Shown one piece after another: positions 4,081 to 60,750 of a DNA stretch of 64,000 nt. The translations under genes and the position numbers were made by a program. The stretch is taken from contig JBGZSM010000069.1 of the NCBI GenBank assembly GCA_041853585.1, forward strand, positions 867 to 64,866, written 5' to 3'. This stretch comes from Filifactoraceae bacterium (lineage in GTDB: Bacteria > Bacillota > Clostridia > Peptostreptococcales > Filifactoraceae). The notes beneath the pieces were generated by a model, which saw only the letters and a list, made by a program, of their open reading frames with translations, ran no database searches and was not told the origin of the DNA. How positions within the stretch are numbered: the first letter of the stretch is position 1; each line of letters begins with the position of its first letter.

Positions 4081-5453
4081 CAACAACCTCTTATCATTTT
4101 CATAAAGTATTGTCGGCTGACAAAAGCGCTTCCCCACGACATTTTGAGCACTTCTTTGAGACCGTATTTTTTTATCATCTTAACGATGCTGCGCGGACGC
4201 ATCACAATGCGATAGTAGAGCAAAATGATTTGCCAATAATATGCTCGAATGCTCATATGCGCCGGTTGCAGAACGATATGCGCCAAATCCCACTTCGGAT
4301 AATCTTCGCGCGTGACGATGATGTCGTCGGCATAGCTCTCAAAAATATCCGTCCCCGGCAATGGGGTGAGCGGCTGCAAATTGACAAAGGTGATATCCAT
4401 CTCTTTGATATGTTTCTCCAGCTCGCGAAAATCATTCTTGCTGTAATCCAAATTGAGTATCATCGTCGCATACAGCTCAATCTGATATTTTTTGAGAATA
4501 TCGACCGCTTTGCGATTGGTTTCGACCGTCGTCTTTTTGTTGAAATTCTGCAAATCTTTTTTTCGAACGGATTCGATGCCGACGATGACGGCGCGCAATC
4601 CGTTTTTGGAAAGCCGCTCTATCAGCGCTTCGTTGTTGGCAATAAAATCCGCTCTGCCGTAAACCAAAAATCGCTTATCCAATCCTTCACGCTCGAGCAA
4701 ATCGCAAAATGTATTCAATCGTTTCGGATTGTATAAAAAATCATCATCCACAATGTAAATTTCCTGCTCCGGTATGCTTTTGAGCTCATCGATGACATCG
4801 TGAATGTCTCGCGCAAAATATTTGCCGTCGGTCACCTCTTTGCAGAAACAAAAGCTGCAATCGAAAGGACAGCCGAAGGAAGTTTTGACCAGAGCGCAGG
4901 GATTGTGGAACATATAATAATATCGCGCGCGATACTTCGCCACCTTGTGACGAGCGGGTGGATGATAAGGAAAGCTCGCAAGCTTCTCCTGCTTCATGCC
5001 GGCGCGATAGGTTCCGCGAATATGCTCATCGCTTAAATCATTTTGTTTTTTCTCCATCGCTCTGTCAACGATGCGCGAGAAAGTACCAATCGGGTCCGCG
5101 CAGATAATATAGTCGATATAATCGTCCAAAAAATCTTCGGGCACGACTTCCGCATGCACCCCGCCCGCCACCGTAATCGTTTGAGGCGAAATTTCTTTTA
5201 TAATGCGCGCATATTCTTTGACAACGCCGACATGGGTGATATATCCGGTAATCCCGACCACATCGGGACGGTATTTTTCGATATAAAATTCCAGCGGCTT
5301 TTTCTCCAAAATCATATCCAAGATTGTCACTTCCGCCTTTTTGTCGGAAATGTTGGCAGCCACATACTCGAGCTCCAGCGGCTCGCAAATCATGACATGC
5401 TGCAAACCGATGGTCTCTTTCGGAGGCCTCGGTCTAATCAACAGAATCTGCAT
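4080..5453 (-). CDS. B12-binding-domain radical SAM protein (paralog 3)
   Basis: MQILLIRPRPP...DVVGITGY...GGVHA, followed by TSFGCPFDCSFC (CxxxCxxC). RBS aaaggag. Clearly paralogous to the ORFs at 6078-7448 and 8355-9779. Confidence 0.8.
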   Translation of the reverse strand: MQILLIRPRPPKETIGLQHVMICEPLELEYVAANISDKKAEVTILDMILEKKPLEFYIEKYRPDVVGITGYITHVGVVKEYARIIKEISPQTITVAGGVHAEVVPEDFLDDYIDYIICADPIGTFSRIVDRAMEKKQNDLSDEHIRGTYRAGMKQEKLASFPYHPPARHKVAKYRARYYYMFHNPCALVKTSFGCPFDCSFCFCKEVTDGKYFARDIHDVIDELKSIPEQEIYIVDDDFLYNPKRLNTFCDLLEREGLDKRFLVYGRADFIANNEALIERLSKNGLRAVIVGIESVRKKDLQNFNKKTTVETNRKAVDILKKYQIELYATMILNLDYSKNDFRELEKHIKEMDITFVNLQPLTPLPGTDIFESYADDIIVTREDYPKWDLAHIVLQPAHMSIRAYYWQIILLYYRIVMRPRSIVKMIKKYGLKEVLKMSWGSAFVSRQYFMKMIRGC

Positions 5454-6078
5454 CTTTTCTCCTTTTTCGAAAAACGCTTACCAAAATCGTAGGCATCCAT
5501 CGCCTTACCCGAATCACGAACATATCCTGAATAACCAAATCGGGATTGCAAAGCGATATCACTTCCTGCTTGGAGAGATACTTCGCCATGCCTGTCGTCG
5601 TCTTGGTCAAGGTGAATGCGATTTTGTCATACCAATTGTTAACCGAGCCATGCGCCAGTATGAGCAGCCCGTCCTCTTTCAAAAGCGTCGTCATATCGCG
5701 CACCGCCTTTTGCTGATTCTCATAATAGGGCAAGGAATGTGTGCAGGTGATGATGTCAAATCGCTCCCCGATGCTCAAAAGTTCTCCGACATCCTTGAGC
5801 AAAAATTTGGCAGCGGTATTTTTTTGCGTCGCGACATCAATCATCCCCTGCGAATAGTCGATGCCGAGTAGGGAAACATCCTTTCCGAAGCGCTGCTCAA
5901 TATCCACCAAAAGCTGCCCCGTTCCGCAGCCGATGTCGAGCAGCTTCTTCCATTCCTCTGACCGGTATTTTGCAATCGTTGAGAGCACCGCTTCTCTCGT
6001 TACGGATAAAGAATATTTTTGCATCCACAACCGCTCGTAGCGTCTCGACCAGTAATTCCAAATTTTTTTATTCGACAT
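5434..6078 (-). CDS. Class I SAM-dependent methyltransferase
   Basis: Motif I LLDIGCGTGQL, with a downstream FDIITCTHSLPY segment. It overlaps both neighbours (1 nt and 20 nt). Confidence 0.75.
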   Translation of the reverse strand: MSNKKIWNYWSRRYERLWMQKYSLSVTREAVLSTIAKYRSEEWKKLLDIGCGTGQLLVDIEQRFGKDVSLLGIDYSQGMIDVATQKNTAAKFLLKDVGELLSIGERFDIITCTHSLPYYENQQKAVRDMTTLLKEDGLLILAHGSVNNWYDKIAFTLTKTTTGMAKYLSKQEVISLCNPDLVIQDMFVIRVRRWMPTILVSVFRKRRKDADSVD

Positions 6079-7448
6079 CAGTCCAAATACATCTTTCTCA
6101 GCAAGTATCGCGACAGCATTCTTTTGAAATATTTCAAATCCAAAAAGTCATACAGCCCCGCCTTGCGTGCTCTCTTGTAAAGTTTCATAAACAAATCGTA
6201 ATAATGACGATAGAATTGCTTTTTCGTCAAATTTTTCGGCTCGAGCACGAGATGTAAAAAATCCCAGTCCTCAATATTGTCCGAGATGATTTCATCCTTG
6301 TATTCTTCATACAGCGGCGTGCCCGGAATCGGTGTGAAAATCGAAATCGTGACATGCATCACCTGATTTTGAACAACCCAATCGTAAATTCTGTCAAAAT
6401 CCTCCTTGGTCGCTTCGACACCGACAATCATCAGCGCAATACATTCGCCGCCCGCTTCCCGAATGACGCGCACCGCCTGCTCATTGTTGGTTACGGAAGT
6501 TCGCTTATTGTACGCGAGCAATTCTTTGTCGCTCGTCGCTTCGAGTCCGACCAAAAAATATTTGAATCCGATATCGACAAGCGCTTGGACGATTTCTTTA
6601 TTTTGTGACACGAAATCGGCTCGGGCGTAACAAGTGTAGGTTTTTTGAATTCGATTCTCTTTGACCAGACGAATGAACTCCCACAGTCTTTTTTTATCCA
6701 CCAAAAAATCATCATCGACGATTTGAATATTATCGACCTCTATCCCGCGAAGCTCCTCGATGACCAAATCCAAATCGCGCACCTGATAGCTGCCCTGATT
6801 GAGCAAGGTGCAATAACAGAATTTGCAATCGAAGGGACAGCTGAACGATGTCTTGAGCGTCGCCATCGGCGTCATATCCAAATATCGAAATCGATGCTTA
6901 TGCTCGTAGAAAAAACTTCGCTCGGGAATCGGCAAGCTGTTGATATCGACTCGCTCATACGGATTGACAATCCAATTTCCCGATTTATCCCGATGACAAA
7001 GCCCGTTGATTTCCGATGGAGAAATCGCCGGCTTCACTTTCTTTTTCAGAGATTCAATCATCCTTATCAAGTCAACGAAGCCGTCCACCGATTCGCTGCG
7101 TACGATAAAATCGATGTTTTCATCATAGAAACGCTGATAATTCAGCTGCGCATGGACTCCTCCGACCAGCGTGACGATGCTCCTGCGAAACTTTTTCGCT
7201 TCGGCAAACATTCTCTTCATCACATTTTCATGAGTCAGATAGCCGGTGATGGCGACCACATCGGGATCGTATTTTTTTAATACCTTTCTAAAAGGCTTGT
7301 TCTCACAAATATAGTCAAAGATATAATCTTCGTAGCCTGCCTGCATCAAGCCCGTATGCAAATACTCCAACTCCAAAGGCTCATTGTCAAGCATGCCTGT
7401 AAAACTCAATTTATTCGGTGCCGGTGGTCTTACCAAGAGCACTTTCAT
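6078..7448 (-). CDS. B12-binding-domain radical SAM protein (paralog 2)
   Basis: MKVLLVRPPAPN...DVVAITGY...GGVHA, followed by TSFSCPFDCKFC. The start at 7448 was chosen from the RBS aaaagga. Confidence 0.8.
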   Translation of the reverse strand: MKVLLVRPPAPNKLSFTGMLDNEPLELEYLHTGLMQAGYEDYIFDYICENKPFRKVLKKYDPDVVAITGYLTHENVMKRMFAEAKKFRRSIVTLVGGVHAQLNYQRFYDENIDFIVRSESVDGFVDLIRMIESLKKKVKPAISPSEINGLCHRDKSGNWIVNPYERVDINSLPIPERSFFYEHKHRFRYLDMTPMATLKTSFSCPFDCKFCYCTLLNQGSYQVRDLDLVIEELRGIEVDNIQIVDDDFLVDKKRLWEFIRLVKENRIQKTYTCYARADFVSQNKEIVQALVDIGFKYFLVGLEATSDKELLAYNKRTSVTNNEQAVRVIREAGGECIALMIVGVEATKEDFDRIYDWVVQNQVMHVTISIFTPIPGTPLYEEYKDEIISDNIEDWDFLHLVLEPKNLTKKQFYRHYYDLFMKLYKRARKAGLYDFLDLKYFKRMLSRYLLRKMYLD

Positions 7449-7476
7449 AATATCCATCCTTTTCCAATTGAAGCGA

Positions 7477-8313
7477 CTACCGATGCTCTTCGCTCGGCAC
7501 CAAGTCAATCACCACATATTCCGGACGATTGTAAAAACGCGGAATTCTTGTCGATTCTCTCGCCAATCCGCGACTGACAATCATCTTGTAATTCTCAAAT
7601 TCATACAGCCCGCCCGCATATTTCGGAAACAATCCCTGATTCGGTGCGAGCAATCCGTTGAGCACACCGGGAATTCGCCATTGTCCTCCATGAGCATGCC
7701 CTGCCATCAAGAGATCAAAATCGCGATATTGCTCGTAGCGCTCCGGACGATGAGTCAGCAGAAGCGAATAGATGTCGGGCTCGATTGTTGACTTGGCTTT
7801 TTCCAGTTGATTTTGCCAAGCGGACTCCCCGATATCGACATCATCGATGCCGAACAAATTGACGCGCTCTCCGCGAATGTTCAGTTCCACTTTGTCGCCT
7901 TCAAGCACCGTGATATTGTAATCGAGAATCGCAGATTTTAATCGAAGCAGCTCCTTTGTCCAACATTCATGATTGCCCGACACATAGTAACTCGGATATT
8001 TTTCTCCCGCCCAGCTCAAAAATTCCCATGCCTTGTCCTCTGGCAAATTGTCGTCGATGATATCGCCCGCGAGGAGCAGCACATCGGGTCTGCTCTGCTC
8101 GATGGCTTCGGTCAAAGTATGCTGTTTTTCTCCGTAATTGCAGCTGTGCAAATCCGCAACGAGCGCAATTCGAATCGGTTTTTGAATTCTTGAATCGGCG
8201 ATGGTGTAGTTCACCACCTCAAGTCGTTGGTCCAATCCCATGCCCAGCAGCAAGGCAGCCGCTCCGGCAACCACCAACATTCGTTTATTCTTTCTTCTTT
8301 TGTTCTTCTTCAT
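7477..8313 (-). CDS. Membrane-anchored metallophosphoesterase (calcineurin-like, YkuE/YaeI type)
   Basis: N-terminal basic plus transmembrane segment, then the motifs IALVADLH, AGDIID, SGNHE and GHAHGGQ. Confidence 0.8.
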   Translation of the reverse strand: MKKNKRRKNKRMLVVAGAAALLLGMGLDQRLEVVNYTIADSRIQKPIRIALVADLHSCNYGEKQHTLTEAIEQSRPDVLLLAGDIIDDNLPEDKAWEFLSWAGEKYPSYYVSGNHECWTKELLRLKSAILDYNITVLEGDKVELNIRGERVNLFGIDDVDIGESAWQNQLEKAKSTIEPDIYSLLLTHRPERYEQYRDFDLLMAGHAHGGQWRIPGVLNGLLAPNQGLFPKYAGGLYEFENYKMIVSRGLARESTRIPRFYNRPEYVVIDLVPSEEHR

Positions 8314-8354
8314 CTTGCTCCCACTCTGCTGAATCTCATTTTGCGAAATTCAGC

Positions 8355-9779
8355 TTATTCCATTTCCAAATCGCGCCAATTCGCTTTGATGGCTCTTTCT
8401 CTTTTTCCGGCAGTCCAAAAATTTTTGATATAGACCGAAATCAATGTGTTGAATCCGAAAAGCATGCGCATCGTGTTGCCGATTGGAAATGCTTTGACGG
8501 TATACTTAACGGAATGTAAATTGAGATTAACGCCGAAAGTGAATTTAAGCACTTCCCAATAGTATCTGCGCAAGCTCATTTTGGACGGCATGATAAGCAC
8601 ATCGCCGAAATTCCATTTGTCATAATCCGTTTCGTCGTAGAGCAGTCGGCTCTTGTACTGCTCAAAAAGCGGGGTGAGCGGGTGCGGATTGAGCGGCGAA
8701 AAGGTCAGCAAGTCCGGCTTGAGCAATTTTTTGTACGCATTGAGCTTTTTGAAATCCGATTTATCCCAATCCGGATGCAAAATGAAGGAGCCCCAACATG
8801 CGATATTATGCGCGCGCAAAATTTCGGTCGCCTTCAAATTCTCGTCCACTGTCGCCGATTTATTATATTTTTTAAGCTGCGCATCGTCAAAGCTTTCATA
8901 GCCGACGATGACCGCAGTCAATCCGTTTTTTCTCAGTCTTGTAAAAAGTTCCGGCTTCTCTAAAATCGAATTGACGGAGCCGTAGCAGATATATTCTTTG
9001 CGAATATTTTTTTCTTCGAGCAGCTCGCAAAAACGCTCCAAACGCTTTCGATTGATTAAAAAGTCATTGTCGCAAATCATGATATAGGGCTCTTCCAAAT
9101 CGCCCAGCTGTTTGACGATGTCCTCAATCGGCACCTCGCGAAGCGCTGCTCCTTCAAGTTTCCAGCGCACGCAAAATTCGCAGCGATTTCGACAGCCGAA
9201 GGAAGTTTGAATCACCGCGCAGGGCTGAAATCCGACATAGCGATATTCCTTGCGATAGCGCTTGGTCGATTCGGTGTCCGGCACGATGTATTCGTTGAAA
9301 CAAAATTCCTTTTCATTTATAAAATCAAGCTCTTGACTGAAAATCCCTTCAATTGCTTCCGTCAGTTTTTCTCCCGTTTCAATTTTTTGCATCAATTCCT
9401 TGTAATTGGCTCTGGTCGTTGATTTGAATACATGATCGACCGACTCGTCAAAAAACGAATTCGGATAGACCGTCGCCTGCACGCCGCCGACGATGACCGC
9501 CGTATTCGGATTGTGTTTTTTTACGATTTTTGCAATGCCGAGCACATTTTCCACATCGGTGCATTGCGATGTAATCCCGACCGCATCGGGTAAAAATTTG
9601 TCCAAGTAGGCTTCGACTTTCGCATTCGTCTCCACCATAAAATCGGCGAGCAATACCTCATGCCCCTGCTCTTTCAAAATCGTCGAAACACATTCTATTC
9701 CGAGCGGCTCACCGAACAGAAAGTTTTTAACCGTTGTAATCTTCTTGTTGACCCAAGGTCTTATCAGTAAAATTCTCAT
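8355..9779 (-). CDS. B12-binding-domain radical SAM protein (paralog 1)
   Basis: MRILLIRPWV...DAVGITSQ...GGVQA, followed by TSFGCRNRCEFC. RBS gaggaaggga precedes the ATG at 9779. Confidence 0.8.
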   Translation of the reverse strand: MRILLIRPWVNKKITTVKNFLFGEPLGIECVSTILKEQGHEVLLADFMVETNAKVEAYLDKFLPDAVGITSQCTDVENVLGIAKIVKKHNPNTAVIVGGVQATVYPNSFFDESVDHVFKSTTRANYKELMQKIETGEKLTEAIEGIFSQELDFINEKEFCFNEYIVPDTESTKRYRKEYRYVGFQPCAVIQTSFGCRNRCEFCVRWKLEGAALREVPIEDIVKQLGDLEEPYIMICDNDFLINRKRLERFCELLEEKNIRKEYICYGSVNSILEKPELFTRLRKNGLTAVIVGYESFDDAQLKKYNKSATVDENLKATEILRAHNIACWGSFILHPDWDKSDFKKLNAYKKLLKPDLLTFSPLNPHPLTPLFEQYKSRLLYDETDYDKWNFGDVLIMPSKMSLRRYYWEVLKFTFGVNLNLHSVKYTVKAFPIGNTMRMLFGFNTLISVYIKNFWTAGKRERAIKANWRDLEME

Positions 9780-9837
9780 TCCCTTCCTCACTTTATTCAC
9801 TACTCCCGTTGCATTGTATCATATTTTTGTAGAATTT

Positions 9838-10800
9838 TTATAGTTTCATACAATGAATTTCACTTCTCTCCCCTCGATGCTCCAATCGCCTAGCAAGAAT
9901 ATCCAAAATTTTTCGCGGTAAATACCGGGAAGCGATATGCAGATGCAGCGCCTTCTCCCGCGCACCGACACGCAATTTCGAATATGCCGTCGTCTGCCCG
10001 AGATGAATTTTGTCAAACCCTTCGCCGAGTTTTAAAATCTCCAGCAGAATATTTATATACAAATCATATTTTTTGTTCTGAGCATGTGCAAAGCCGCAAA
10101 AGAGAAAAATCAGCTCCTTGTCGAAGGCTCTGGTTTGGAAAAAACCGATGAGCTCCTTTTTTTCATTTGAGATTCGATACAGATTCGCATCGCATCTTTT
10201 GAAAAAATCGATGCCGAGCTTTTCCAGCTTCCCCTCGGAGCGCTCATAGACTTCTTCATAAAAAGCATAGAGTTTCTCATCGAAATTTGACGGATGAATG
10301 GATTCAAACACAAGATTTTTTCCTCTGTCCATCGCCTTACGAATTCGGTAGCGATAGTGGCTGCGCATCTTGCTCAAATAAATTTCAAAATCGTCCACCA
10401 CCGTGTGAAAACTCGGCAGGGTCTTACCCTTGGCAAGCCGAAGTCCTCCATCGGTGTTAAGCACGAGCAGCAGCGCAAAGCTCGAAAGATATTTTTCCAA
10501 TATCGGCAAATTCTCCCTCGGGCAAGCATACCCGGCGCTCGCGACCGAAAGCGGAATGCCGGCAATTTCTATCGGCAAACGAAGCGATAATGTTTGGCTG
10601 AAGGTCAGAATATCCAATTTCAAACGATAAGTAATGAGCAGGATTTGATATTTTTCATGGAAATGATATCGCTGATGACAGGGATTGACCTCCTCCATAA
10701 AACTCAAAAATTCTCTTTTCAAAAAAGGATTGCTCGAGCATTCATCCCAACGAGCCGGCAAATCCTTCGCGCTGTCAAAAATCACAAATTCCGTCTTCAT
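9838..10800 (-). CDS. FemAB-like / DUF482-type GNAT-fold acyltransferase
   Basis: N-terminal W..C..NPFLKREFLSFMEE signature, and a C-terminal half resembling the BioF2/FemAB-like acyltransferase fold. ATGA overlap with the upstream GNAT gene. Confidence 0.5.
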   Translation of the reverse strand: MKTEFVIFDSAKDLPARWDECSSNPFLKREFLSFMEEVNPCHQRYHFHEKYQILLITYRLKLDILTFSQTLSLRLPIEIAGIPLSVASAGYACPRENLPILEKYLSSFALLLVLNTDGGLRLAKGKTLPSFHTVVDDFEIYLSKMRSHYRYRIRKAMDRGKNLVFESIHPSNFDEKLYAFYEEVYERSEGKLEKLGIDFFKRCDANLYRISNEKKELIGFFQTRAFDKELIFLFCGFAHAQNKKYDLYINILLEILKLGEGFDKIHLGQTTAYSKLRVGAREKALHLHIASRYLPRKILDILARRLEHRGERSEIHCMKL

Positions 10801-11867
10801 AGATTGATTTCAAACACTTTGTAATGCTTGCTTTCTTTTTTTATAAAATGAGTTGTCACATTTTTGGAGCTTGAATTGTCATCCAATATCCAGCCCGACT
10901 CGATGAAACGGTATTTTTCTTTGTTGAGCTCATAGCAATGCTTGAGCAGCGCATAGAGCGCCGCCGAGCGACGGTACTTCGGGATGATGCCGAATTCCGT
11001 AAACTTCAGCGTATCAATCAGCCCCGGCAGGAATCGGCTCTTCAAAAAGGCCATCAATCCCAGTTCCTGTCCTCCGCTGATGAGCTGATTGAAATCGGGA
11101 TACCAAAGAATGAATCCGACCGGCAAATCATCCTTGTAGGCGAAAAGCAAATTTTCCGGTTTCAAAAAGAGTTTGTATTCATTAAACAGCTCGATATCTT
11201 CCGCCTCTCTGCTCTCATAATAATATTCATGCTCGGCGAATGCGAGATTGTTGATTCTCCCGTAAATCTTGGCCGTCTTTTCGATATGTTGAAAATCCGC
11301 ATGGCGAACTTCAAACTGCGCCATTCGTTGCTCCAGCGCGGGCGATGGATTGAGCTTGATGTCCTCAATCAACCCTTTGTAGCTCACGAGATTTTTTGTC
11401 GTCGTCGCCAATTTTTCCAAATGCTCGGTATAATATGCGGGATTGTACGCGCTGCCGATGCTCTGCACTTTGTCAAAATCGCTCGCAAGCAGACCCAAAC
11501 CATAGTTGACATGAAAATTGAGTCCGATGAGAATGCTTCGAATCCGTCGTTCTTTTGCAAATTCCTTGGCGAAATCGACGATGGCTTTGGCAATCTCAAA
11601 ATCATTTCTCATTTCCAAAAAAGCGATTTGCAACTTGTCCGCCATTCTGTCAATCACCGCCAAAAATGCCATGCCTACGATTTGATTATTTTTCTCCGCC
11701 ACAATCGGCACGATTTCGGATTTTTTCTGAATCTCCATCTTTCCGGCGAACAATGCTTTCAGCGTTCTGCTCTGATGGTCCCGATAATTTGAATTGCCTC
11801 GATAGATTTCCTTTTGAAAATGCAGCATCGCTACAAAATCCTCCGGCTTTGCGAATCGTACAATCAT
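10797..11867 (-). CDS. Long (~356 aa) GNAT-family acyltransferase, paralog of 26913-27977
   Basis: Shared architecture and the YNP.YY motif with the second copy. GNAT-like C-terminal half (GIIPKYRRSAALYALL). First gene of the radical SAM operon. Confidence 0.6.
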   Translation of the reverse strand: MIVRFAKPEDFVAMLHFQKEIYRGNSNYRDHQSRTLKALFAGKMEIQKKSEIVPIVAEKNNQIVGMAFLAVIDRMADKLQIAFLEMRNDFEIAKAIVDFAKEFAKERRIRSILIGLNFHVNYGLGLLASDFDKVQSIGSAYNPAYYTEHLEKLATTTKNLVSYKGLIEDIKLNPSPALEQRMAQFEVRHADFQHIEKTAKIYGRINNLAFAEHEYYYESREAEDIELFNEYKLFLKPENLLFAYKDDLPVGFILWYPDFNQLISGGQELGLMAFLKSRFLPGLIDTLKFTEFGIIPKYRRSAALYALLKHCYELNKEKYRFIESGWILDDNSSSKNVTTHFIKKESKHYKVFEINL

Positions 11868-12740: not shown

Positions 12741-13487
12741 CTATCCGAGCTCTCCATCCGTCATATCTTCGACGAGATGACGCCAATAATATTTCGGCAA
12801 ATTGCTCTGCTGCAATTTTTTATTTTGACGCTCGCGAATCGAAATGCTTTTATGAAAAACATTCCACAAAAATGCGTATTCCAATTCGGCATCGCTCCAC
12901 TTGATTTCGACTTTTTCGGTAAAAAATAAATCGATGCGCTGTCCGTCATAGTATGCGAGCATATTTCTTTTTTTGTCATAGATAGCAAATCGCTCTCGCA
13001 CCAGTCGATTTTTAAAATGGGAAAGCAGTATCGGCAACACATTATTTTTCGGCTCAATGGTCGAAAACAATGTGCCGTCGTGCATTTCTCGAAATCGCAG
13101 AAGTCCCAGATAGCGATGACGCTCACGCAACACATTGCGCACCAACTTGTTCATTTGCAAGGCATATTCGTCCACCGATTCCAAAATCCCTTCTCCACAT
13201 TCCATCGCCCGAAAAATCATCCGCACGATGATTTCGTCTTTGTGCGGCTCGCAGGACAAAAAACAGGCTTGCAAATCCGCAAAAAATTGATACGAAAATT
13301 TTTCGCGCAGATATTTTTCAACGCGCCGCGCTTTTTCAACATCGGTCGCCACATAGATTTCGCTCGTGTCAAAGGCGAGCTGCTCCGGCTCGGCGCTGAT
13401 TCTTCCTAGTTCTTTACGGTGTTTGTAGGATTCAAAGACGACGCTCAACAGACCGTCAAAATCCCCGTCATAGTAATAATGATACAT
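12741..13487 (-). CDS. DUF4130 / TIGR03915-type probable DNA metabolism protein
   Basis: MYHYYYDGDFDGLLSVVFESYK N-terminus and RF.E..DG.L....EP...V C-terminal half. It overlaps the stop of the radical SAM partner gene. Confidence 0.7.
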   Translation of the reverse strand: MYHYYYDGDFDGLLSVVFESYKHRKELGRISAEPEQLAFDTSEIYVATDVEKARRVEKYLREKFSYQFFADLQACFLSCEPHKDEIIVRMIFRAMECGEGILESVDEYALQMNKLVRNVLRERHRYLGLLRFREMHDGTLFSTIEPKNNVLPILLSHFKNRLVRERFAIYDKKRNMLAYYDGQRIDLFFTEKVEIKWSDAELEYAFLWNVFHKSISIRERQNKKLQQSNLPKYYWRHLVEDMTDGELG

Positions 13488-14767
13488 TACTCCCCTCCAT
13501 TTCCCAATAATGAAGCGGCATTTGCTTTGTCAAAAAAACCGATTTGCTGAACCGCAGGCTTTTCTCCTTCGAGCAAAAGATTTCGGATGCTGCTCGGATT
13601 TTCCTTATACAAACCGTAATATTTCCCATCGACCGTAATAAAATACTTCGCGCGTTTGAGCACCACGCCGATTTTCTTCAAATGCTCGTATTGAATTTTA
13701 CTATGCTTTCGCGCTTTGATGATGCGCAGCGCTGAAGTGACACCCAAACCGGGAATGCGTAGCAAATCATTATAGGACGCCGTATTGATCTCCATCGGGA
13801 AGCGATGCCAGTTGTGAATCGCCCAATTCGCCTTCGGGTCGAGCAGCGGGTCGAAAAAAGCATTCTGCTCGCTGAGCAATTCGTCGGCGCGAAATTTATA
13901 AAACCGCAGCAACCAATCCGCTTGATACAGGCGATGCTCACGAAGCATCGGCGCAGCACCGACATGAGCCAGCGCGCCCGTTTTGTTCACCGGAATGTAG
14001 GCGGAATAATACACTCTTTTGAGTCCGAAACCATTGTAAAGTTGCTCGCTCTTGTTTAAAATCGTGTAATCGCTTTCGCCGCTCGCGCCGATAATCATCT
14101 GCGTCGTCTGTCCCGCCGGCACAAAACTCGGCGTGCTCTTAAACAATGCTTTCTCCTGAAAGCGCTGAATCTGATGACTATAAATCCGGCTCATCGATGT
14201 GATGATGTCGCTCACTTTTTTATCCGGTGCAAGCAGCTGCAGTCCCTGATTGTCCGCCATCTCAACATTCACCGAGACTCTGTCGACATACATGCCCAAG
14301 GTCTGTATCAATTCTTGGCTCGCTCCCGGAATCACCTTCATGTGAATGTAGCCGTTGAATTTTTCTTCGACGCGCAATCGTCGGGCAACGGCAATCAATC
14401 TTTCCATCGTGTAATCCGGATTTTTCAAAATGCCGGAGCTTAAAAAAAGTCCTTCGATATAATTTCGACGATAGAAGTTGATGGTCAAATCGACGATTTC
14501 ATCCGGCGAAAGTGTCGCCCGCTCGATATCGTTGCTGCGTCGGTTGACGCAATAAGCGCAATCGTAAGCGCAATGATTGCTCATCAATATTTTGAGCAAT
14601 GAAATGCATCGCCCGTCCGCCGACCATGAATGACAGATGCCGCTCTTTGCCGCGTTTCCGATTCCATCCGTCGTATTTTTTCGCTCGCTGCCGCTGGATG
14701 AGCAAGACACATCGTATTTTGCCGCGTCGCTGAGAATTCTTAACTTGTCCTGTGTCGATTGATTCAT
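13487..14767 (-). CDS. Putative DNA modification/repair radical SAM protein (HhH C-terminus)
   Basis: DAAKYDVSCSSSG...CAYDCAYCVNR radical SAM motif, with a C-terminal LLRIPGLGVTSALRIIKAR helix-hairpin-helix. The start ATG at 14767 is supported by the RBS aaggaggag. Confidence 0.8.
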   Translation of the reverse strand: MNQSTQDKLRILSDAAKYDVSCSSSGSERKNTTDGIGNAAKSGICHSWSADGRCISLLKILMSNHCAYDCAYCVNRRSNDIERATLSPDEIVDLTINFYRRNYIEGLFLSSGILKNPDYTMERLIAVARRLRVEEKFNGYIHMKVIPGASQELIQTLGMYVDRVSVNVEMADNQGLQLLAPDKKVSDIITSMSRIYSHQIQRFQEKALFKSTPSFVPAGQTTQMIIGASGESDYTILNKSEQLYNGFGLKRVYYSAYIPVNKTGALAHVGAAPMLREHRLYQADWLLRFYKFRADELLSEQNAFFDPLLDPKANWAIHNWHRFPMEINTASYNDLLRIPGLGVTSALRIIKARKHSKIQYEHLKKIGVVLKRAKYFITVDGKYYGLYKENPSSIRNLLLEGEKPAVQQIGFFDKANAASLLGNGGE

Positions 14768-15193
14768 TTGCTCCTCCTTGCTCAATTTCCGGATTCGAAT
14801 CGGGATTGCAGACGGACTTTACCGCCTCCGTTGATTTATATATCCAATTAAACTTGATTTCGAATCTCGCTTCTTTTCCATTCCGTATTTACTTTTACAT
14901 TTCACTTGCAATTGTGATTTCGGTTTTCTATTCGATTCTTATTCCGATTTAAAGTGCACTCACTTTTCGAAAAAATTCATCCGCAACTTTTCCCGAAAAT
15001 ACATCATAACTATTCTTTTTAATTTCTTTTTTTCTTATATTTTTCCGTTTACGATATTATATCACGCGAAAAAGAAAAAAACCGGAAATCTTGAAAATTT
15101 TTTCGATAAATTTTTTGAAAGGCTTGCCAAGGATATTTTTTTGCGATACTGTTAAAGAAAGGAATACGAAAAAATTTATAAGGACGGAGAACT

Positions 15194-54377: not shown

Positions 54378-54766
54378 TATTCGTAATCATCCTCATAAAT
54401 CGGTTCGTAAAAATCTTCTTCATAATCATACTCGAATCGTCGTTGATTTTGCCGATGCTCTTCCTCCCAATACGCTTTGCGCTGAGGATTTCCGGATTGC
54501 TCGAACCGCTCCATAAGCTCAGATTGCTCTTTGAAATACTGCTCCTCTTTCATCTGCTCAATCACTGCATCAATATGACGCTCCAACATCGGATTCGGCT
54601 TCTTGTCCAAATCACTCGCGCCCTCCGGCATTTTTCCCGCCGGATTTGGCAATGCATCCTCTTTTTGATGCCCGCGCATATCCATTGTGTTTTCAGATTC
54701 GTCGACAGCTTTGGCTTGAACTTGCTTCTCTCTATCGACGCCTTCATTTTTCTCTATCTTTTTCAT
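54377..54766 (-). CDS. Acidic hypothetical protein
   Basis: RBS gagaggag precedes the ATG at 54766. 129 aa, E/D/Y-rich C-terminus. Confidence 0.45.
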   Translation of the reverse strand: MKKIEKNEGVDREKQVQAKAVDESENTMDMRGHQKEDALPNPAGKMPEGASDLDKKPNPMLERHIDAVIEQMKEEQYFKEQSELMERFEQSGNPQRKAYWEEEHRQNQRRFEYDYEEDFYEPIYEDDYE

Positions 54767-54911
54767 CACAAACTCCTCTCTCAAGTAGTTGTTCTTACTT
54801 TGATTATACGATTTTTCAGGCGCAATTACAAGCCAAAGCGAACGCAAATAAAAAGTCACTGCTCAAAACTCCTTGGACTGTCATTTCAAATCAGGACTTT
54901 TCAAACAGTGA

Positions 54912-55538
54912 CTATCTTTCGTTAAGTCGAATGGAGAATGTTTTTTCCGCCACCTCAAACGCTTTCTCAACCGGAAGGCAATAAGTGTTTTCCTTATCCT
55001 CCTCCGCAATACCGTTATAATACTCTTCCATGTGTTTCTTTGAACCAAAGAAATTCATGATATTTCAACAATTTGCCGCCCAATTTTCTACTTTTGATAA
55101 ATCAACATGGATGGCACATAATGAGTGTGGCTGATACTCCGTCAATTCCCCATTGCAAATTGAAACTTGGATTTTCTCGCCGGAAACGGGACATACCGAC
55201 TCAATATTGATATCCTGATTGAATACAAATGCCGAACCCATCGCATCAATTGCGCACATTGAATAGAATTCTCTTCCGTCCTTAAGCTTTACATGATGAC
55301 TGGTCGGTAAATTGGACACCGGATATGCAAATAGAATCTCTTCGCCGTCCGTTACAATAGTTTCCTTCTCTATCAGGCTATCGATGATACTGCGATTATC
55401 TCCGCAAAATTTTTCCTCCGTAAGCGGTTTTCGTTTCTCAATCATCGCATTGAGCAATTCGATGCGAAGCTTACTTTCTTTTTCATCTAATTTCGCATCA
55501 ATGTTAATGACCTTTTCTAAATCAATTTTCGTATTCAC
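54912..55538 (-). CDS. MerB-like organometal lyase, candidate selenoprotein (in-frame UGA at 55065-55067, C-U motif)
   Basis: FYSMCAIDAMG aligns with MerB YAWCALDTL (Cys/Asp). The track ORF stops at ...WAANC-TGA, but the same frame continues for 50 codons: NIMNFFGSKKHMEEYY...PVEKAFEVAEK. That matches MerB [9 protein letters not shown]...VHEAFGLGQ. GTG start at 55538 overlaps the ATPase stop. Confidence 0.75.
55035..55053 (-). promoter_or_regulatory. SECIS-like hairpin for the MerB-like UGA
   Basis: Minus strand: tttcttt-GGTTC-aaagaaa, starting 11 nt after the TGA. Confidence 0.6.
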
Positions 55539-56290
55539 ACAATTACTCCCTTTTCTGAAATTTTTTGAACCAGTTTCATGCAATAGTCCTTATATTGCTC
55601 ACAGTAGCGATTGCGTGGTCTCGGAAGATTATTTTCCAATTCATATACAATCTTTCCTGCATTCGTTGACATCAAAATAACTTTATCACTCAAATATACT
55701 GCCTCATCCACATCGTGCGTTACCATGAGTGCGGTAATCTTTTCTTCACGCCAAATATTTTCAATCTCCATCTGGAGCGATTGGCGCATCATCAAATCCA
55801 ATGCTCCAAGCGGTTCATCCATCAATAAAACCTTCGGCTTACTTGCCAAAGCTCGAACCAAAGCCGTTCTCTGTTTCATTCCACCTGATATCTGATGAGA
55901 ATATAATTCTTCATGTCCTTTTAATTTAGAAATCTCCAACAGATATTCCAGCCTTTGCCGTTGTTCATTATCCGGAATCTTCATTTGTTTCATCGGGAAC
56001 AAAATATTGTCTTTGACCGTCATCCAAGGGAACAACGCATAGTTCTGGAATACAAATGCTCTATCGGGATTCGGACCATTTATTATGTCGCCATCCAATT
56101 TCACCATTCCCGAATCGCTTTTTTCAAATCCGGCAATTATTGAAAGCATTGTTGTTTTTCCACATCCGGATGGACCGAGTAATGTTACAAACTGCCCCTC
56201 TTCTAAAGTGAATGAAATATTTTCCAGCACTTTCTTATGTTTGTTTTGATTTTTAAATGTCTTTGATATATTATTTACTTCCAGTTTCAT
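55535..56290 (-). CDS. ABC transporter ATP-binding protein (nitrate/sulfonate/taurine NitT-type)
   Basis: GPSGCGKTT, ISGGMKQR and LLMDEPLGALD motifs. The ATG at 56290 forms an ATGA overlap with the permease stop. Confidence 0.85.
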   Translation of the reverse strand: MKLEVNNISKTFKNQNKHKKVLENISFTLEEGQFVTLLGPSGCGKTTMLSIIAGFEKSDSGMVKLDGDIINGPNPDRAFVFQNYALFPWMTVKDNILFPMKQMKIPDNEQRQRLEYLLEISKLKGHEELYSHQISGGMKQRTALVRALASKPKVLLMDEPLGALDLMMRQSLQMEIENIWREEKITALMVTHDVDEAVYLSDKVILMSTNAGKIVYELENNLPRPRNRYCEQYKDYCMKLVQKISEKGVIV

Positions 56291-57054
56291 GATACAAATC
56301 TCCACTTGGTAAGATATCTATTTGTTATTTGTAAAAGAATATCAATCGCATATCCTATAATAGCTGACATAAACATCAGCGCAATCAGCACATCGGTTTG
56401 CATCATCGATTGTGCTTCCACCATTGAGTAGCCCAGACCGGCACTTGTCGCTATGAACTCCGCTCAGATTACTGACATCCATCCGCTGCCGATTGCCAAT
56501 CTCGCTCCTACTAGAATATCCGGTAACGCTCCGGGTATCACCACATTCCAAAAAATGCTCCATTTCCCGGCGCCCATACTTTTAGCTGCATTATAATAGT
56601 CTTTGGAAATATTTGATACCCCTTGATTCGTATTCAATATTACTTGGAACAGACCATTGATTGCAATCATGAAAAGAGTTGGTCCATCTCCAATTCCCAA
56701 CCAGATAATTGTAAGAGGAACCCATGCCATCATCGGAATTTGACGAAGAGAATTCATCAGGCCACCAAAAACATAATTAAATTTTTTTGATAAGCCCATT
56801 CCGATTCCTAAAGGGATACCGATGATAAGTGCAATTAACCATCCTTTCAATACGCGTACCATAGTAATTCCAACATTGGTCATAATTTTTAAATCAAAGA
56901 TACTTTGAAAAAATGCTTTTGCCGTTGCATACGGCGTCGGTAAAAGTAATGGAATGGCGATTCTTTTTGCCGCAATGTACCATCCAAGCAACAAAATGCA
57001 GTAAAAAGCTAATTTCAAAATAGCATCTTTATAGTTGATTTTTAGATTCTGCAT
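56287..57054 (-). CDS. ABC transporter permease (SsuC/TauC type) interrupted by an in-frame TGA at 56464-56466; Sec-recoded or a pseudogene
   Basis: ...AIGSGWMSVI-TGA-AEFIATSAGLGYSMVEAQSMMQTDVLIALMFMSAIIGYAIDILLQITNRYLTKWRFVS, all in one frame. The gene ends in an ATGA overlap with the ATPase start. Confidence 0.6.
56427..56445 (-). promoter_or_regulatory. SECIS-like hairpin for the permease UGA (weaker)
   Basis: Minus strand: agtgcc-GGTCTG-ggc(t)act, starting 18 nt after the TGA. It overlaps the conserved AGLGY codons, so it may be coincidental. Confidence 0.35.
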
Positions 57055-57818
57055 TATTTTATTGTCAGTAGTTTTACTTTCCAATCTTTTATCCTCTCCT
57101 CCTTTAAGTTCGTATAATTTGCAATTTGTCTTTGCATTTCCAACGAATCTTCATTAAGAATATTCACCGCTTTGTTGTAGGCTTTAACAAAGTTTTTGTA
57201 TTCCTTTGTTCCGATATAGTTTTTATCCGCAACCAATACAAAAGTGTCATTAAGCATCGGATAGTCGGTCTCTCCACTCAAGCTTCCACTCTTGGCAACA
57301 TCTAAAAAAACAGCATCCACTTGACCGCTTTCATAAGCATAGCCCAATGCATTACGACCGGTTTGATGAATTTCTATTGTTTTTTCAAATTTCGCCCTTA
57401 AATATTCTTCATGGAACATTTTATTTTCTTGAATTGCAATGCTCTTTATTTTGTCATTCCTTTTTATAATGACATCCGTATTTTGAAATAGCGGACATAC
57501 AACTACAAGGTCTGAATTCGATTGTGTAAGATTACTTGCCGCATCTTTACATAATATCGCCATGGAATAAATATCTGTGCTCAATGCCCATTGAGCCGTT
57601 TTTGCTCAACAGTCCCGAATGAAGAACGGTTTTACTTTCCCCTCCGTGTAAATTTCGTTGTGAATCATATAATCCACCACAAAACCGGACATATCATCCG
57701 AGACCCCTATTGCTACTTGATTTTCAGTATTGTTTTTTTGATTCAAATTTTGATGGTAAACAAAGAAACTCATGCCTATCAACACAAAAATCAAAAATAC
57801 ACTACGATTCAATTTCAT
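57054..57818 (-). CDS. Membrane-anchored periplasmic-binding-like protein, candidate selenoprotein (in-frame UGA at 57606-57608, C-U motif)
   Basis: Track ORFs 57606-57842 and 57054-57584 are in the same frame: ...KVKPFFIRDC-TGA-AKTAQWALSTDIYSMAILCKDAASNL... The signal anchor is present only in the upstream piece. TAATG overlap with the permease start. Confidence 0.65.
57579..57596 (-). promoter_or_regulatory. SECIS-like hairpin for the binding-protein UGA
   Basis: Minus strand: gctcaat-GGGC-attgagc (perfect 7-bp stem), starting 9 nt after the TGA. Confidence 0.6.
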
Positions 57819-58914
57819 TTGCCTTTTTTTCAAATTCCTCAAAAGTCATTCCTACCGGAAAATCCTTTTCAATTTTCTCTTGAATGTATTTGTCAAAATC
57901 ATCCAGTCCCGCGTCGTTATAGATATCTCTTTCTATAACATCCTCAACCGGCGGTAAAGTCTTCACCAAATTGTATTTTTTATACACCTCATAAGCATGA
58001 TTAAACTGCTTTTCATTTAACTGCCAAGTAAGCGTTCTTCCTTCTTCATTGCATTTTTTATAAATGGTCATCAATGATACTTCGTACGGCACATTATAGT
58101 ATTGTGAAAAAATCTCTGCCGCTTTTTTGGGATGTTCATAGATATATTTAATACTGTCCTGATGCGCCTTCAAAAGTTCGACAGCAAGTTCTCTATGCTC
58201 TTTAATGAAGTTTTTGTTCAATGCAAATCCGCAACAAATCCCCATTTCATCATCCATGTCACGATAAGTTGCCATTATTTTCCCAACCTTTTGATGCTCC
58301 GCCATCGAGCCCCAAGGGTCACAACAGGTATATCCTTTTATCTGGCCGGTACTCAAAGCCAAAAAACTGTCCGAATCCGAGCCGGTATTAACCAATTCAT
58401 AGTCTTCTGCTTTTGTTGAGAGATTAAGAATCTGAGAATATCCCGCAAGCCAATCCTCACTTGTTGAGGGGGCGCCCATCGCAACTTTTTGACCATATAA
58501 ATCTTCCGGTTTTTTAATATCATTGGACACAACCAGATACATTGAGCCGCCGATATGATTGTTTGCCGCATAAACAATCGGAGAACCTTCTCCGTTTGCC
58601 GCAACCAATCCTCGCGCGCCGATATATCCGGCATCCATTTGTCCTGCAGCCATCGCCTGTGGAACTTTGCCGTTTCCGGTCAACTTTACTTTGAGATTAT
58701 GGGCTTTATATATTCCCGCCGCTTCTCCAACCGGTCCTGCAACCATGTGGTCACAATTGTAGTAGCCCAAATTAATCTCATAATCACTGTTCACATCCGT
58801 CTGTTCCGGCGGTGTGCTGCTATTGGAATCTCCGCCTTGATTGCTTTTGCTGCATCCAAAAAATCCCGTTACCAAAATCATGCTCAATAATATAGTTGCT
58901 ATTTTTCTTTTCAT
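57802..58914 (-). CDS. Cys-rich ABC substrate-binding lipoprotein (NMT1/SsuA-like)
   Basis: Lipobox VTGFFGC. NMT1-like fold pattern with unusual Cys clusters: YYNCDHM, GYTCCDPWG, MGICCGFAL. Confidence 0.7.
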   Translation of the reverse strand: MKRKIATILLSMILVTGFFGCSKSNQGGDSNSSTPPEQTDVNSDYEINLGYYNCDHMVAGPVGEAAGIYKAHNLKVKLTGNGKVPQAMAAGQMDAGYIGARGLVAANGEGSPIVYAANNHIGGSMYLVVSNDIKKPEDLYGQKVAMGAPSTSEDWLAGYSQILNLSTKAEDYELVNTGSDSDSFLALSTGQIKGYTCCDPWGSMAEHQKVGKIMATYRDMDDEMGICCGFALNKNFIKEHRELAVELLKAHQDSIKYIYEHPKKAAEIFSQYYNVPYEVSLMTIYKKCNEEGRTLTWQLNEKQFNHAYEVYKKYNLVKTLPPVEDVIERDIYNDAGLDDFDKYIQEKIEKDFPVGMTFEEFEKKANEIES

Positions 58915-58922
58915 ATTGCCTC

Positions 58923-59396
58923 CTAACAACAATTGTCCATATCCTCACTAAACAAATCTCGAACTGTCATATCCGCTTGCATGCGATAAATGGCATATCC
59001 GTAATTTCCATCTTTCGAGCCTGATATTATAAATTCGATAGGCTCTTTTTCATCAATGTTTTTAAACTGAATATCTACATTCTCTCTTGGGGCTAAAAAC
59101 TTTTCCGTCGCTTGATATTGTGTATTATCTTTATTGAGCAGTACTACCGCATAATTTTTTTCTTCTTCTTGAGGATGGTATATGACCAACAAATCTTTTT
59201 TCCCGTCATCATTCACATCTTCACTTTTTGCCATCAGCAAATCATAATTTTTATTTGTTTCTAAAAAATGAATGAGGTAAGGATGGTCTTTTTCTCCAAA
59301 ATCATTATTTTCCTGAATGGATTTGTTTCGACTATAAAGCTGAAAGCCTACCACAAAAATGACGAAAACTGCAATAATTTTTTTCAGTTCTTTCAT
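58923..59396 (-). CDS. Membrane-anchored protein with an FG-GAP-like DxDxDG motif and a C-terminal Cys-Cys
   Basis: N-terminal transmembrane segment, DVNDDGKKDLLV, and a C-terminus ending ...DMDNCC-TAG. ATGA overlap with the upstream permease gene. Confidence 0.5.
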   Translation of the reverse strand: MKELKKIIAVFVIFVVGFQLYSRNKSIQENNDFGEKDHPYLIHFLETNKNYDLLMAKSEDVNDDGKKDLLVIYHPQEEEKNYAVVLLNKDNTQYQATEKFLAPRENVDIQFKNIDEKEPIEFIISGSKDGNYGYAIYRMQADMTVRDLFSEDMDNCC

Positions 59397-60478
59397 TGCA
59401 ATCTCCTTTTCTCTATATAACTCATGATTCTATGATACATTGCCAGCGCAAAGAATATCAGAATAACGGATGAAGCTGCATAACGAAATCCCGTCGGGAA
59501 AATAACTATCAACCGATTGGCACTTTGAATTGAATAGTCGATTGTATCAATACTTATCTGCGGTTTATAACTCGGCATCAAAATTAAATTCGTAATATAG
59601 CCTAGAACAACAGCCATCGCCGTAACAACTCCACCGTAAATGATTGCCGATCGCTTCCCTATCATTCGATAAATACTGATTAGTTCCGCGATATTGGTAG
59701 ATGCGCCCGCAATCAAAAAAGTTACTGCAGAACCCGGTGACGCTCCCGCTGCAATCAGGGCAGCAATAAACGGAATATGACCGACCGCACAAACATACAT
59801 TACCGTTGCCAATATCGCTACATTTAATAATGACAATGCACTTGGATTTCCTAAATATTTCTGAATTACGGATGATGGAAAAGTTACCATAATGAATCCG
59901 GCTACAAACATCCCTGTAACAACATATTTACTTATTACTAAAGCAAAATCGTTCACCATCCAAACAAATCCCGATTTTATTTTTTCAGGTATGCTTCTAG
60001 TATCCATCCGCTCACTCATCTCGATATTTTGAGAATAAGCCTGTGGATAATACAATTCTTTTCCGGCGGTGCTGTTTGCAATCCATCCAATCATCATCGG
60101 AAAAATTAAACCAATTACAAAATATATTGCGGTCAGTTCTTTCCCAAATAATCCGTACGACAAAATCAGCGCAATCGGATTGATAACCGGCGTGGATGTC
60201 ATAAAACAAAGTACCGGACCGATATAAGCGCCGGAATAATACATACTGATTCCCAACGGAACGGTTCCGCAACTGCAAATAGGCAAGACAAATCCCGACA
60301 GTGTAACTTTCATCAAAGCTGAAAAACTCTTATTCCCCAAATGATGATGCAGCTTTTCGACAGGAATTAAATCATGCAGAATCGCTGCGATGAGGTAGCT
60401 GATTACAATCCAAGAAGACGCGGTGTTCAATAAATTAAAAGAAACGCGAAGAATATTCCAAAGATACTCTCTCATCAT
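59393..60478 (-). CDS. ArsP-like / DUF318-type permease
   Basis: Polytopic protein with two homologous halves and an LPICSCGTVPLG motif in the first half, typical of this permease family. ATGA overlap with the thioredoxin-like gene. Confidence 0.65.
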   Translation of the reverse strand: MMREYLWNILRVSFNLLNTASSWIVISYLIAAILHDLIPVEKLHHHLGNKSFSALMKVTLSGFVLPICSCGTVPLGISMYYSGAYIGPVLCFMTSTPVINPIALILSYGLFGKELTAIYFVIGLIFPMMIGWIANSTAGKELYYPQAYSQNIEMSERMDTRSIPEKIKSGFVWMVNDFALVISKYVVTGMFVAGFIMVTFPSSVIQKYLGNPSALSLLNVAILATVMYVCAVGHIPFIAALIAAGASPGSAVTFLIAGASTNIAELISIYRMIGKRSAIIYGGVVTAMAVVLGYITNLILMPSYKPQISIDTIDYSIQSANRLIVIFPTGFRYAASSVILIFFALAMYHRIMSYIEKRRLQ

Positions 60479-60750
60479 CCATCTCCTCCTTCATTCAATT
60501 TTGAAACGGCGTCATCAATAGCTCGGTCAATCATCATTTTGTTGGGATTTTTAATAAATATTTTTTCATCAATTATCAAAGTTCCAACATAAATCATGCC
60601 ATACTTTTTTATGTATTCCATATCCCTTCCTGCATAATACAATTTTAAATCAATTTTTTCTTTGTATCTGGCTGCTGAAGATTGAACCAATCTTCCAATC
60701 GAATCACAGGATGGTCATGTATTCACAAATTCCACTTTTACTTTTTTCAT
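60475..60750 (-). CDS. Small thioredoxin-fold protein (redox-active disulfide protein 2 / Thioredoxin_3 type), candidate selenoprotein with UxxC (UGA at 60715-60717)
   Basis: RBS aagagga precedes the ATG at 60750. Translation: MKKVKVEFVNT-TGA-PSCDSIGRLVQ...KYGMIYVGTLIIDEKIF. The track ORF 60475-60690 is the same frame downstream. The UPSC sits exactly where this family carries CxxC. Confidence 0.7.
60677..60695 (-). promoter_or_regulatory. SECIS-like hairpin for the thioredoxin-like UGA
   Basis: Minus strand: gaagatt-GGTTC-aatcttc (perfect stem), starting 19 nt after the TGA. The loop is identical to that of the MerB-like hairpin. Confidence 0.6.

Follow-up and report, generated by a model that had tools for sequence, protein, structure and literature searches.

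The minus-strand frame at 57818..57054 of the window (the whole stretch of DNA analysed here, 64,000 nt) is almost certainly saoB, and a genuine selenocysteine (Sec) gene. Its product is very probably an exported, Sec-containing type II substrate-binding protein (SBP) that belongs to the SAO (Selenocysteine-Assisted Organometallic) system, in which it would capture a ligand for import. Haft and Gwadz described SaoB and the nine-gene SAO system from sequence (bioRxiv 10.1101/2022.07.06.499078; J Bacteriol 2023, 205:e0025922), and the present locus is a rediscovery of a family, a CU motif and a whole operon published in 2022/2023. The earlier note on this DNA had stated "I do not recognise such a selenoprotein class". 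The class is SaoB, NCBIfam NF040727, and the claim of an unrecognised class fails because Haft and Gwadz had described the family, the CU motif and the third Cys. The features of the locus are collected in Table 1.

Table 1. Features of the sao locus in the window, in operon order.
Feature	Positions	Strand	Details and basis
saoT, thioredoxin-like selenoprotein, 91 aa	60475..60750	-	NF040730, 107.5 bits (cutoff 65)
In-frame TGA of saoT	60717..60715	-	MKKVKVEFVNT-U-PSC; U-P-S-C motif; TGA conserved in relatives
Hairpin of saoT	60695..60677	-	8-bp stem, GUU loop
saoE, ArsP/SO_0444-like efflux permease, 361 aa, no Sec	59393..60478	-	NF040736, 459 bits (cutoff 325); PF03773
saoC, exported Cys-Cys-COOH protein	58923..59396	-	NF040734, 160 bits (cutoff 80)
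saoX, NMT1/SsuA-like substrate-binding lipoprotein	57802..58914	-	NF040735, 485 bits (cutoff 300); PF09084, PF13379
saoB	57054..57818	-	Cys70-Sec71, Cys90; N-terminal hydrophobic segment; translation, NF040727, CC-form alignment
In-frame TGA, Sec71 of SaoB	57606..57608	-	Translation and column in related loci
Candidate SECIS hairpin of saoB, GCUCAAU-GGGC-AUUGAGC	57579..57596	-	7-bp stem, 9 nt after UGA
saoP, TauC/SsuC-like ABC permease, 255 aa	56287..57054	-	NF040733, 368.5 bits (cutoff 295)
In-frame TGA of saoP	56466..56464	-	...GWMSVI-U-AEFIA...
Weak candidate hairpin of saoP	~56446..56426	-
saoA, ABC transporter ATP-binding subunit	55535..56290	-	NF040729, 397.5 bits (cutoff 360)
saoL, MerB-like organometallic lyase selenoprotein, 208 aa	54912..55538	-	NF040728, 164.8 bits (cutoff 140); PF03243
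In-frame TGA of saoL	55067..55065	-	CAID, then ...WAANC-U-NIMNFF
Hairpin of saoL	within 55059..55029	-	UUUCUUUG-GUU-CAAAGAAA; z = -2.32

The saoB frame comprises 254 codons, with the TGA at 57608..57606 as its sole interruption. It opens at ATG 57818, reads MKLNRSVFLIFVLIGMSFFVYHQ...KVKPFFIRDC up to the TGA and continues past it without change of frame as AKTAQWALSTDIYSMAILCKDAASNL..., ending at a TAA (57056..57054); the context of the site is ...FFIRDC-U-AKTAQWALS.... The list of open reading frames splits the gene into a piece of 78 aa (57842..57606) and one of 176 aa (57584..57054), the second starting at a TTG, so that a gap of seven codons follows the TGA. The earlier note had placed the two pieces in one frame, separated by the TGA and seven codons and adding up to 254 aa, all of which is borne out by translation. 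The motif CUxxT is present in the product (RDC-U-AKT), and Cys90, 19 residues after Sec71, occupies an invariant alignment column. In the N-terminus, MKLNRSVFLIFVLIGMSFFVY, some 16 hydrophobic residues come after a basic N-region, by eye a predicted signal or anchor, and a helix spans residues 2-29 in the model of a SaoB homologue (P0011).

With Sec written as Cys, the read-through product scores 195.1 bits against NF040727 (cutoff 140, E = 1e-57), a model entitled 'ABC transporter substrate-binding (seleno)protein SaoB' and named SBP_SaoB_CU. The match aligns residues 8-252 with positions 5-260 of the 262 in the profile, and it is the full-length product, not the pieces, that passes. No family was found in a Pfam scan of SaoB, and a PDB sequence-profile search with the SaoB alignment returned a chance match only (E = 0.47); the assignment as an SBP therefore rests on fold comparison and on a published PSI-BLAST chain.

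The TGA is best read as Sec when the gene is compared with its relatives. It stands at the identical column in eight loci, which represent about seven lineages and have proteins 35-99% identical, with frame and homology continuing on both sides. These loci are found in Johnsonella ignava (L001/L009), two metagenome lineages (L004, L011), a near-identical MAG (L008; contig JAUNKE010000041.1, Peptostreptococcaceae MAG S30M_Sa_15, 99.7% identical to the window over 11.5 kb), a Peptoniphilaceae MAG (L010), Clostridiaceae bacterium 35-E11 (L012) and Tissierella creatinophila, which has two copies (L013, L014). Two full-length homologues of 258 aa, P0011 and P0012, carry Cys-Cys at the dyad (FIKDCC[SA]KTSQ), and the locus encoding P0011 (L007) has TGT at the TGA column. 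Where annotation puts a gap between two ORFs, a stretch of 7-16 codons from the TGA to the annotated second start, the protein sequence is conserved and includes the peptide [AT][KT]T[AS]QWAL[SR]. The dyad is CC in two homologues and C-TGA in eight loci, which speaks against a two-gene history, and the earlier claim of one read-through gene agrees both with these homologues and with the full-length NF040727 match. A tRNA scan of the window found none and hence no tRNA-Sec, and no selA, selB or selD was identified among the window ORFs annotated, which lie outside ~14.8-33.2 kb.

Two other readings of the TGA were weighed. Were it a genuine stop, saoB would be a pseudogene or two genes, encoding a membrane peptide of 70-78 aa and a cytosolic protein of 169-176 aa. 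Database annotation appears to favor such a split: in a search of 5.8 billion proteins the SaoB relatives were mostly C-terminal fragments of 169-176 aa (such as P0001-P0008), automated gene callers having made the same mis-annotation in most entries, and the saoB hairpin is not significant as a single sequence. Against this, the same in-frame TGA recurs in about seven lineages with the protein conserved across the gap codons, the Cys-form homologues run continuously through the site, the full-length product passes NF040727 end to end, and a like pattern is found, at sites equivalent to Cys, in three neighboring sao genes. We consider a genuine stop highly improbable, and reject a pseudogene or gene pair on the conservation across the TGA and the gap. 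A variant code, in which the TGA would be a sense codon for Trp or Gly, could be argued from one metagenomic gene call (P0009) that translates through the saoB TGA as W. However, TGA closes 16 of the 60 long open frames in the window, and only four sao genes contain convincing in-frame TGAs; since TGA is an ordinary terminator here, the genome is not a recoded one. In addition, the TGA column is Cys in the aligned SaoB Cys forms and corresponds to a MerB2 Cys in SaoL, Cys-form SaoP members have been published, and relatives in Lachnospiraceae, Tissierellia and Clostridiaceae, which use standard code 11, share the same TGAs. We give the variant code practically no credence and have rejected it, TGA being used as a stop in the window. 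Sec insertion is thus the reading that we retain.

Downstream of the saoB UGA, the hairpin that the earlier note had described, with its 7-bp stem and GGGC loop, is present and forms the minimum-free-energy structure (-8.1 kcal/mol). Taken alone it does not exceed chance (z = -1.17; 23 of 200 shuffles reach an equally good fold), and single-sequence folding of the four post-UGA regions of the operon gave z values of -1.17, -0.09, -2.32 and +0.37, none of them convincing by itself. Comparison between loci is more informative. A 15-nt block, TCAATGGGC(A/C)TTGAG, in which one loop-closing base varies, is otherwise invariant in 8 Sec-form sequences, although the Sec-form proteins are only 35-60% identical. 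The shared core, CUCAA(U)/(A)UUGAG, comprises 5-6 bp, the perfect 7-bp stem being specific to this lineage. Inside the block the Gln codon is CAA in six of six cases and the six-fold-degenerate Leu codon is TTG, also in six of six; four other invariant Leu columns of saoB each use two to four codons, and free variation is seen in the Ala and Thr codons that separate the UGA from the stem. A covariation test of the hairpin found none, the core pairs never changing, with shuffles scoring equally. Support for the hairpin comes from invariance and frozen synonymous sites, not from compensatory changes, and this conservation is not fully separable from that of the peptide SQWALS. The concern that a spacing of 9 nt would bar SelB-dependent decoding finds no support, since both the spacing and the hairpin core are common to every Sec-form orthologue. 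In a SaoC example of Haft and Gwadz (10.1101/2022.07.06.499078), a spacer of 10 nt leads to a 7-bp stem whose loop is GGU. Scanning the entire window against Rfam at gathering thresholds gave no match.

The fold was approached through the Cys-form homologue P0011, a proxy 33% identical to SaoB, which was modeled by AF2 with the family alignment at moderate confidence (mean pLDDT 65, pTM 0.52). A Foldseek comparison of this model with the PDB gave 552 matches at E ≤ 0.001, the top ones (MetQ, TauA, SsuA, PqqT and LAO) all being type II SBPs at probability 1.00 and TM 0.4-0.55. A type II substrate-binding fold for SaoB is supported by this predicted structure, in keeping with the extracytoplasmic, binding-type protein that the earlier note had proposed. 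In the P0011 model, strand 58-63 is joined to helix 69-76 by a loop that holds the CC dyad, and strand 82-86 terminates in the third Cys. The ligand cleft of the type II SBP fold is lined by the lobe-1 strands at their C-terminal ends and by the helices that follow them at their N-termini. This modeled location, considered as position in the fold rather than as distances, places the dyad in a loop after a lobe-1 strand and agrees with the published AlphaFold model of C. difficile SaoB, in which Cys71, Sec72 and Cys91 converge on the probable substrate site (Haft and Gwadz, 10.1101/2022.07.06.499078).

SaoB shares with the type II SBPs MetQ, TauA, SsuA and LAO (PDB 6cva, 6ssy, 2x26 and 6mkx) a predicted two-lobe alternating beta/alpha fold and, like them, is partnered with a TauC/SsuC-like permease and an NrtD/TauB-like ATPase. 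Unlike SaoB, those proteins have neither Sec nor a vicinal Cys pair in the pocket; their sequences show no detectable similarity to it, and their lipobox is absent from SaoB, whose N-terminus is plainly hydrophobic, a predicted anchor. Between SaoB as published (C. difficile WP_239591066.1) and the present protein we see no substantive difference. Both have C-U followed by xxT, a Cys 19 residues on, a position between saoX and saoP, an ORF split at the TGA and a hairpin with a G-rich loop. The published N-terminal signal sequence has a candidate counterpart here in the basic and hydrophobic segment; the present gene comes from an uncultured oral/saliva-type Peptostreptococcaceae MAG. Haft and Gwadz had recognized two C. 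difficile entries, WP_009897548.1 and WP_009897547.1, as the N- and C-terminal pieces of one selenoprotein, gave the motif as CU, and counted over 60% of the SaoB family as selenoproteins. They knew of no earlier ABC substrate-binding protein with Sec, and stated that the NCBI annotation pipeline now calls these proteins full length via a curated model.

The gene belongs to a complete SAO locus on the minus strand (60750..54912), in which saoT-E-C-X-B-P-A-L stand in the published gene order and all eight proteins exceed the curated NCBIfam cutoffs. The order around saoB, between saoX and saoP, is the same in three related loci (L001, L004 and L007). An in-frame UGA occurs in four of the genes, T, B, P and L; the earlier note saw that of saoB and missed those of saoT, saoP and saoL. 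The saoP TGA is kept in every relative, including L007, whose SaoB is the Cys form, and the Sec of SaoL falls on a Cys of MerB2 in an alignment with PDB 5c17. SaoC ends here in ...DNCC (TGT TGT TAG), the Cys form and not the C-U form, and SaoX carries the CC motifs TCCDPW and ICCGF and no Sec. Haft and Gwadz placed the Sec of SaoP where MetI has its gating residue, Met163, and reported Cys-form SaoP members; they described SaoL as a MerB-like CU selenoprotein, listed SaoT variants including UPTC, and found that SaoD and SaoL are not universal. One operon here brings together an importer (SaoX/SaoB/SaoP/SaoA), an efflux permease (SaoE), a lyase (SaoL) and the small Cys/Sec proteins SaoT and SaoC.

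The locus differs from the published one in that neither saoD (DsrE-like) nor the double-cubane 8Fe-9S genes that are common next to SAO loci were found among the annotated genes beside it. Its membership in SAO still stands, because not every SAO locus has SaoD and the location of the double-cubane genes varies (Haft and Gwadz, 10.1101/2022.07.06.499078). The upstream neighbor of saoT is a divergent gene for leucyl aminopeptidase; downstream of saoL come an unassigned acidic ORF and rlmH. The acidic ORF (54380..54769) showed no similarity to the ORF at the same position in the Johnsonella-type locus, and a promoter and terminator scan of the sao operon gave counts no higher than those of shuffles. 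The closest named relative of the operon is that of Johnsonella ignava ATCC 51276, with DNA ~73% identical over saoB-saoA and a SaoB ~54-61% identical.

A mechanism may be outlined from these features. The UGA of saoB would be decoded as Sec with the help of the downstream hairpin, to give a single exported SBP of ~254 aa. Cys70, Sec71 and Cys90 would lie at the cleft-facing ends of neighboring lobe-1 strands and could ligate a soft (thiophilic) metal which, following Haft and Gwadz, would probably be part of an organometallic substrate. SaoB may then pass its substrate to a SaoP dimer with a Sec pair at the gate, with SaoA powering import; in the cytosol, the MerB-like SaoL would cleave the carbon-metal bond and SaoE would export the metal, while SaoT and SaoC may act as thiol/selenol chaperones. 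The earlier suggestion that the C-U pair captures a thiophilic ligand coincides with the inference of Haft and Gwadz, and we keep it at that strength: SaoB would serve ligand capture and import. Haft and Gwadz call their own SAO model 'highly speculative', a 2026 review that lists SaoB (NF040727, motif CUxxT) among the prokaryotic selenoproteins says that the roles 'require further investigation', and in the literature we found no report of Sec insertion, ligand or transport for any Sao protein.

As to the ligand itself, we hold the chances to be about even that the C-U-C triad binds a metal or organometallic species. The mercury-resistance Mer proteins offer a partial parallel: in MerP, MerT and MerB a soft metal has thiol(ate) ligands that are vicinal or paired, as it would in SaoB, and SaoL is a MerB homologue (PF03243). 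SaoB is not a MerP homologue, however; the SAO locus has no merR, merA or merT, and uptake would proceed via an ABC importer and a binding protein. Characterized Mer proteins lack Sec, according to Haft and Gwadz (10.1101/2022.07.06.499078). A less likely reading, which we regard as possible but doubtful, keeps SaoB as a Sec-containing protein and makes the ligand a soft metal or metalloid in inorganic form (Hg, Cu, As, Cd and others) or a reactive sulfur or selenium species; selenide, polysulfide or a thiosulfate-like compound would be captured by selenenylsulfide exchange, and metal use would amount to resistance or homeostasis. Several observations are in line with such a non-organometallic ligand. 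SaoE resembles the SO_0444 Cu/Zn efflux proteins and the ArsP family; the nearest relatives of SaoX, SaoP and SaoA are transporters of taurine, sulfonate and nitrate; the 2026 review files the Sao proteins under heavy-metal or metalloid resistance; SaoL is missing from some SAO loci; and a double-cubane gene was not found next to this one. On the other side, a MerB-like lyase with C-U at the metal site is conserved at the end of this operon and in the related loci examined and points to chemistry at a carbon-metal bond, the neighborhood has no canonical mer or ars regulator, and Haft and Gwadz argue from phylogenetic profiles that metabolism is a likelier role than resistance. A further idea, which we rate as improbable, is that the triad may be an extracytoplasmic catalytic or exchange center, forming a covalent Se-metal or Se-S adduct with the substrate, which would move on by ligand exchange to the Sec pair at the SaoP gate in a selenolate relay across the membrane.

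Taken together, the case has some value as a check, since a reader with nothing but the raw sequence had rightly inferred that the gene encodes a read-through selenoprotein, and what chemistry it is likely to have. The SAO system as a whole combines Sec in an ABC binding protein and at a permease gate with a Sec-containing MerB homologue. Were the selenolate relay true, it would be a transport mechanism without characterized precedent, and its presence in oral taxa (this MAG and Johnsonella ignava) would raise the question of which soft metal is met in the mouth. The locus itself is a compact example of the system, with eight genes and four Sec codons in an uncultured, human-associated Peptostreptococcaceae lineage and, having no saoD and no double-cubane gene found beside it, helps to define the minimal set of SAO components.

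Beyond that of saoB, the SAO operon of the window contains three further in-frame TGA (Sec) codons, located in SaoT, SaoP and SaoL (see table), and each of these proteins, when read through, exceeds its NCBIfam cutoff. Directly downstream of saoL lies an acidic, low-complexity ORF that has no family match and no similarity to its positional counterpart in the Johnsonella-type locus; it probably falls outside SAO.

Features of the SAO operon and of other window genes
Feature	Position	Strand	Detail
SaoT	60475..60750	minus	in-frame TGA 60717..60715, motif U-P-S-C
SaoP, permease	56287..57054	minus	in-frame TGA 56466..56464, VI-U-AE
SaoL, MerB-like	54912..55538	minus	in-frame TGA 55067..55065, NC-U-N
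Acidic low-complexity ORF	54380..54769	minus	130 aa
Four paralogous B12-binding radical-SAM ORFs	2758..11867	minus	459, 457, 476, 481 aa
Putative DNA modification/repair radical-SAM protein and partner, gene pair	12741..14785	minus	TIGR03916 (643 bits); TIGR03915

Away from the operon, the four radical-SAM paralogues resemble HpnR/BchE/PhpK, with scores far under the family cutoffs, and are interspersed with four ORFs for which no NCBIfam family match was found. This region looks like an uncharacterised biosynthetic cluster.

In L007, a locus encoding a Cys-form (TGT) SaoB (P0011), the saoB gene retains a hairpin in the region 6199..6246 (GUCAAA-UAGC-UUUGAC), positioned as in Sec-form genes. 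Compared with CUCAAU-GGGC-AUUGAG, both sides of the stem are altered in two pairs and the loop is without GG; the hairpin could be a relic of a Sec-containing ancestor, or it could have arisen by chance. SaoP of this locus retains its in-frame TGA beside the Cys-form SaoB, and its SaoL has been called as a truncated gene, like the SaoL calls of Sec-form loci. Within L010, a Peptoniphilaceae MAG locus, two ORFs (~5178 and ~10499) end in GEGM..C-TGA-TAG, an ending typical of SaoC, and a stem-loop follows each. This contig apparently encodes two copies of the C-U-COOH form of SaoC, a form predicted by Haft & Gwadz (bioRxiv 10.1101/2022.07.06.499078; J Bacteriol 2023, 205:e0025922).

The SaoB homologue P0009, an ENA metagenome protein, reads FFIRDCWAKTSQ, the gene caller having placed Trp at the Sec TGA, probably through use of genetic code 4. 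In protein sets derived from metagenomes, such errors of translation could mask Sec sites.
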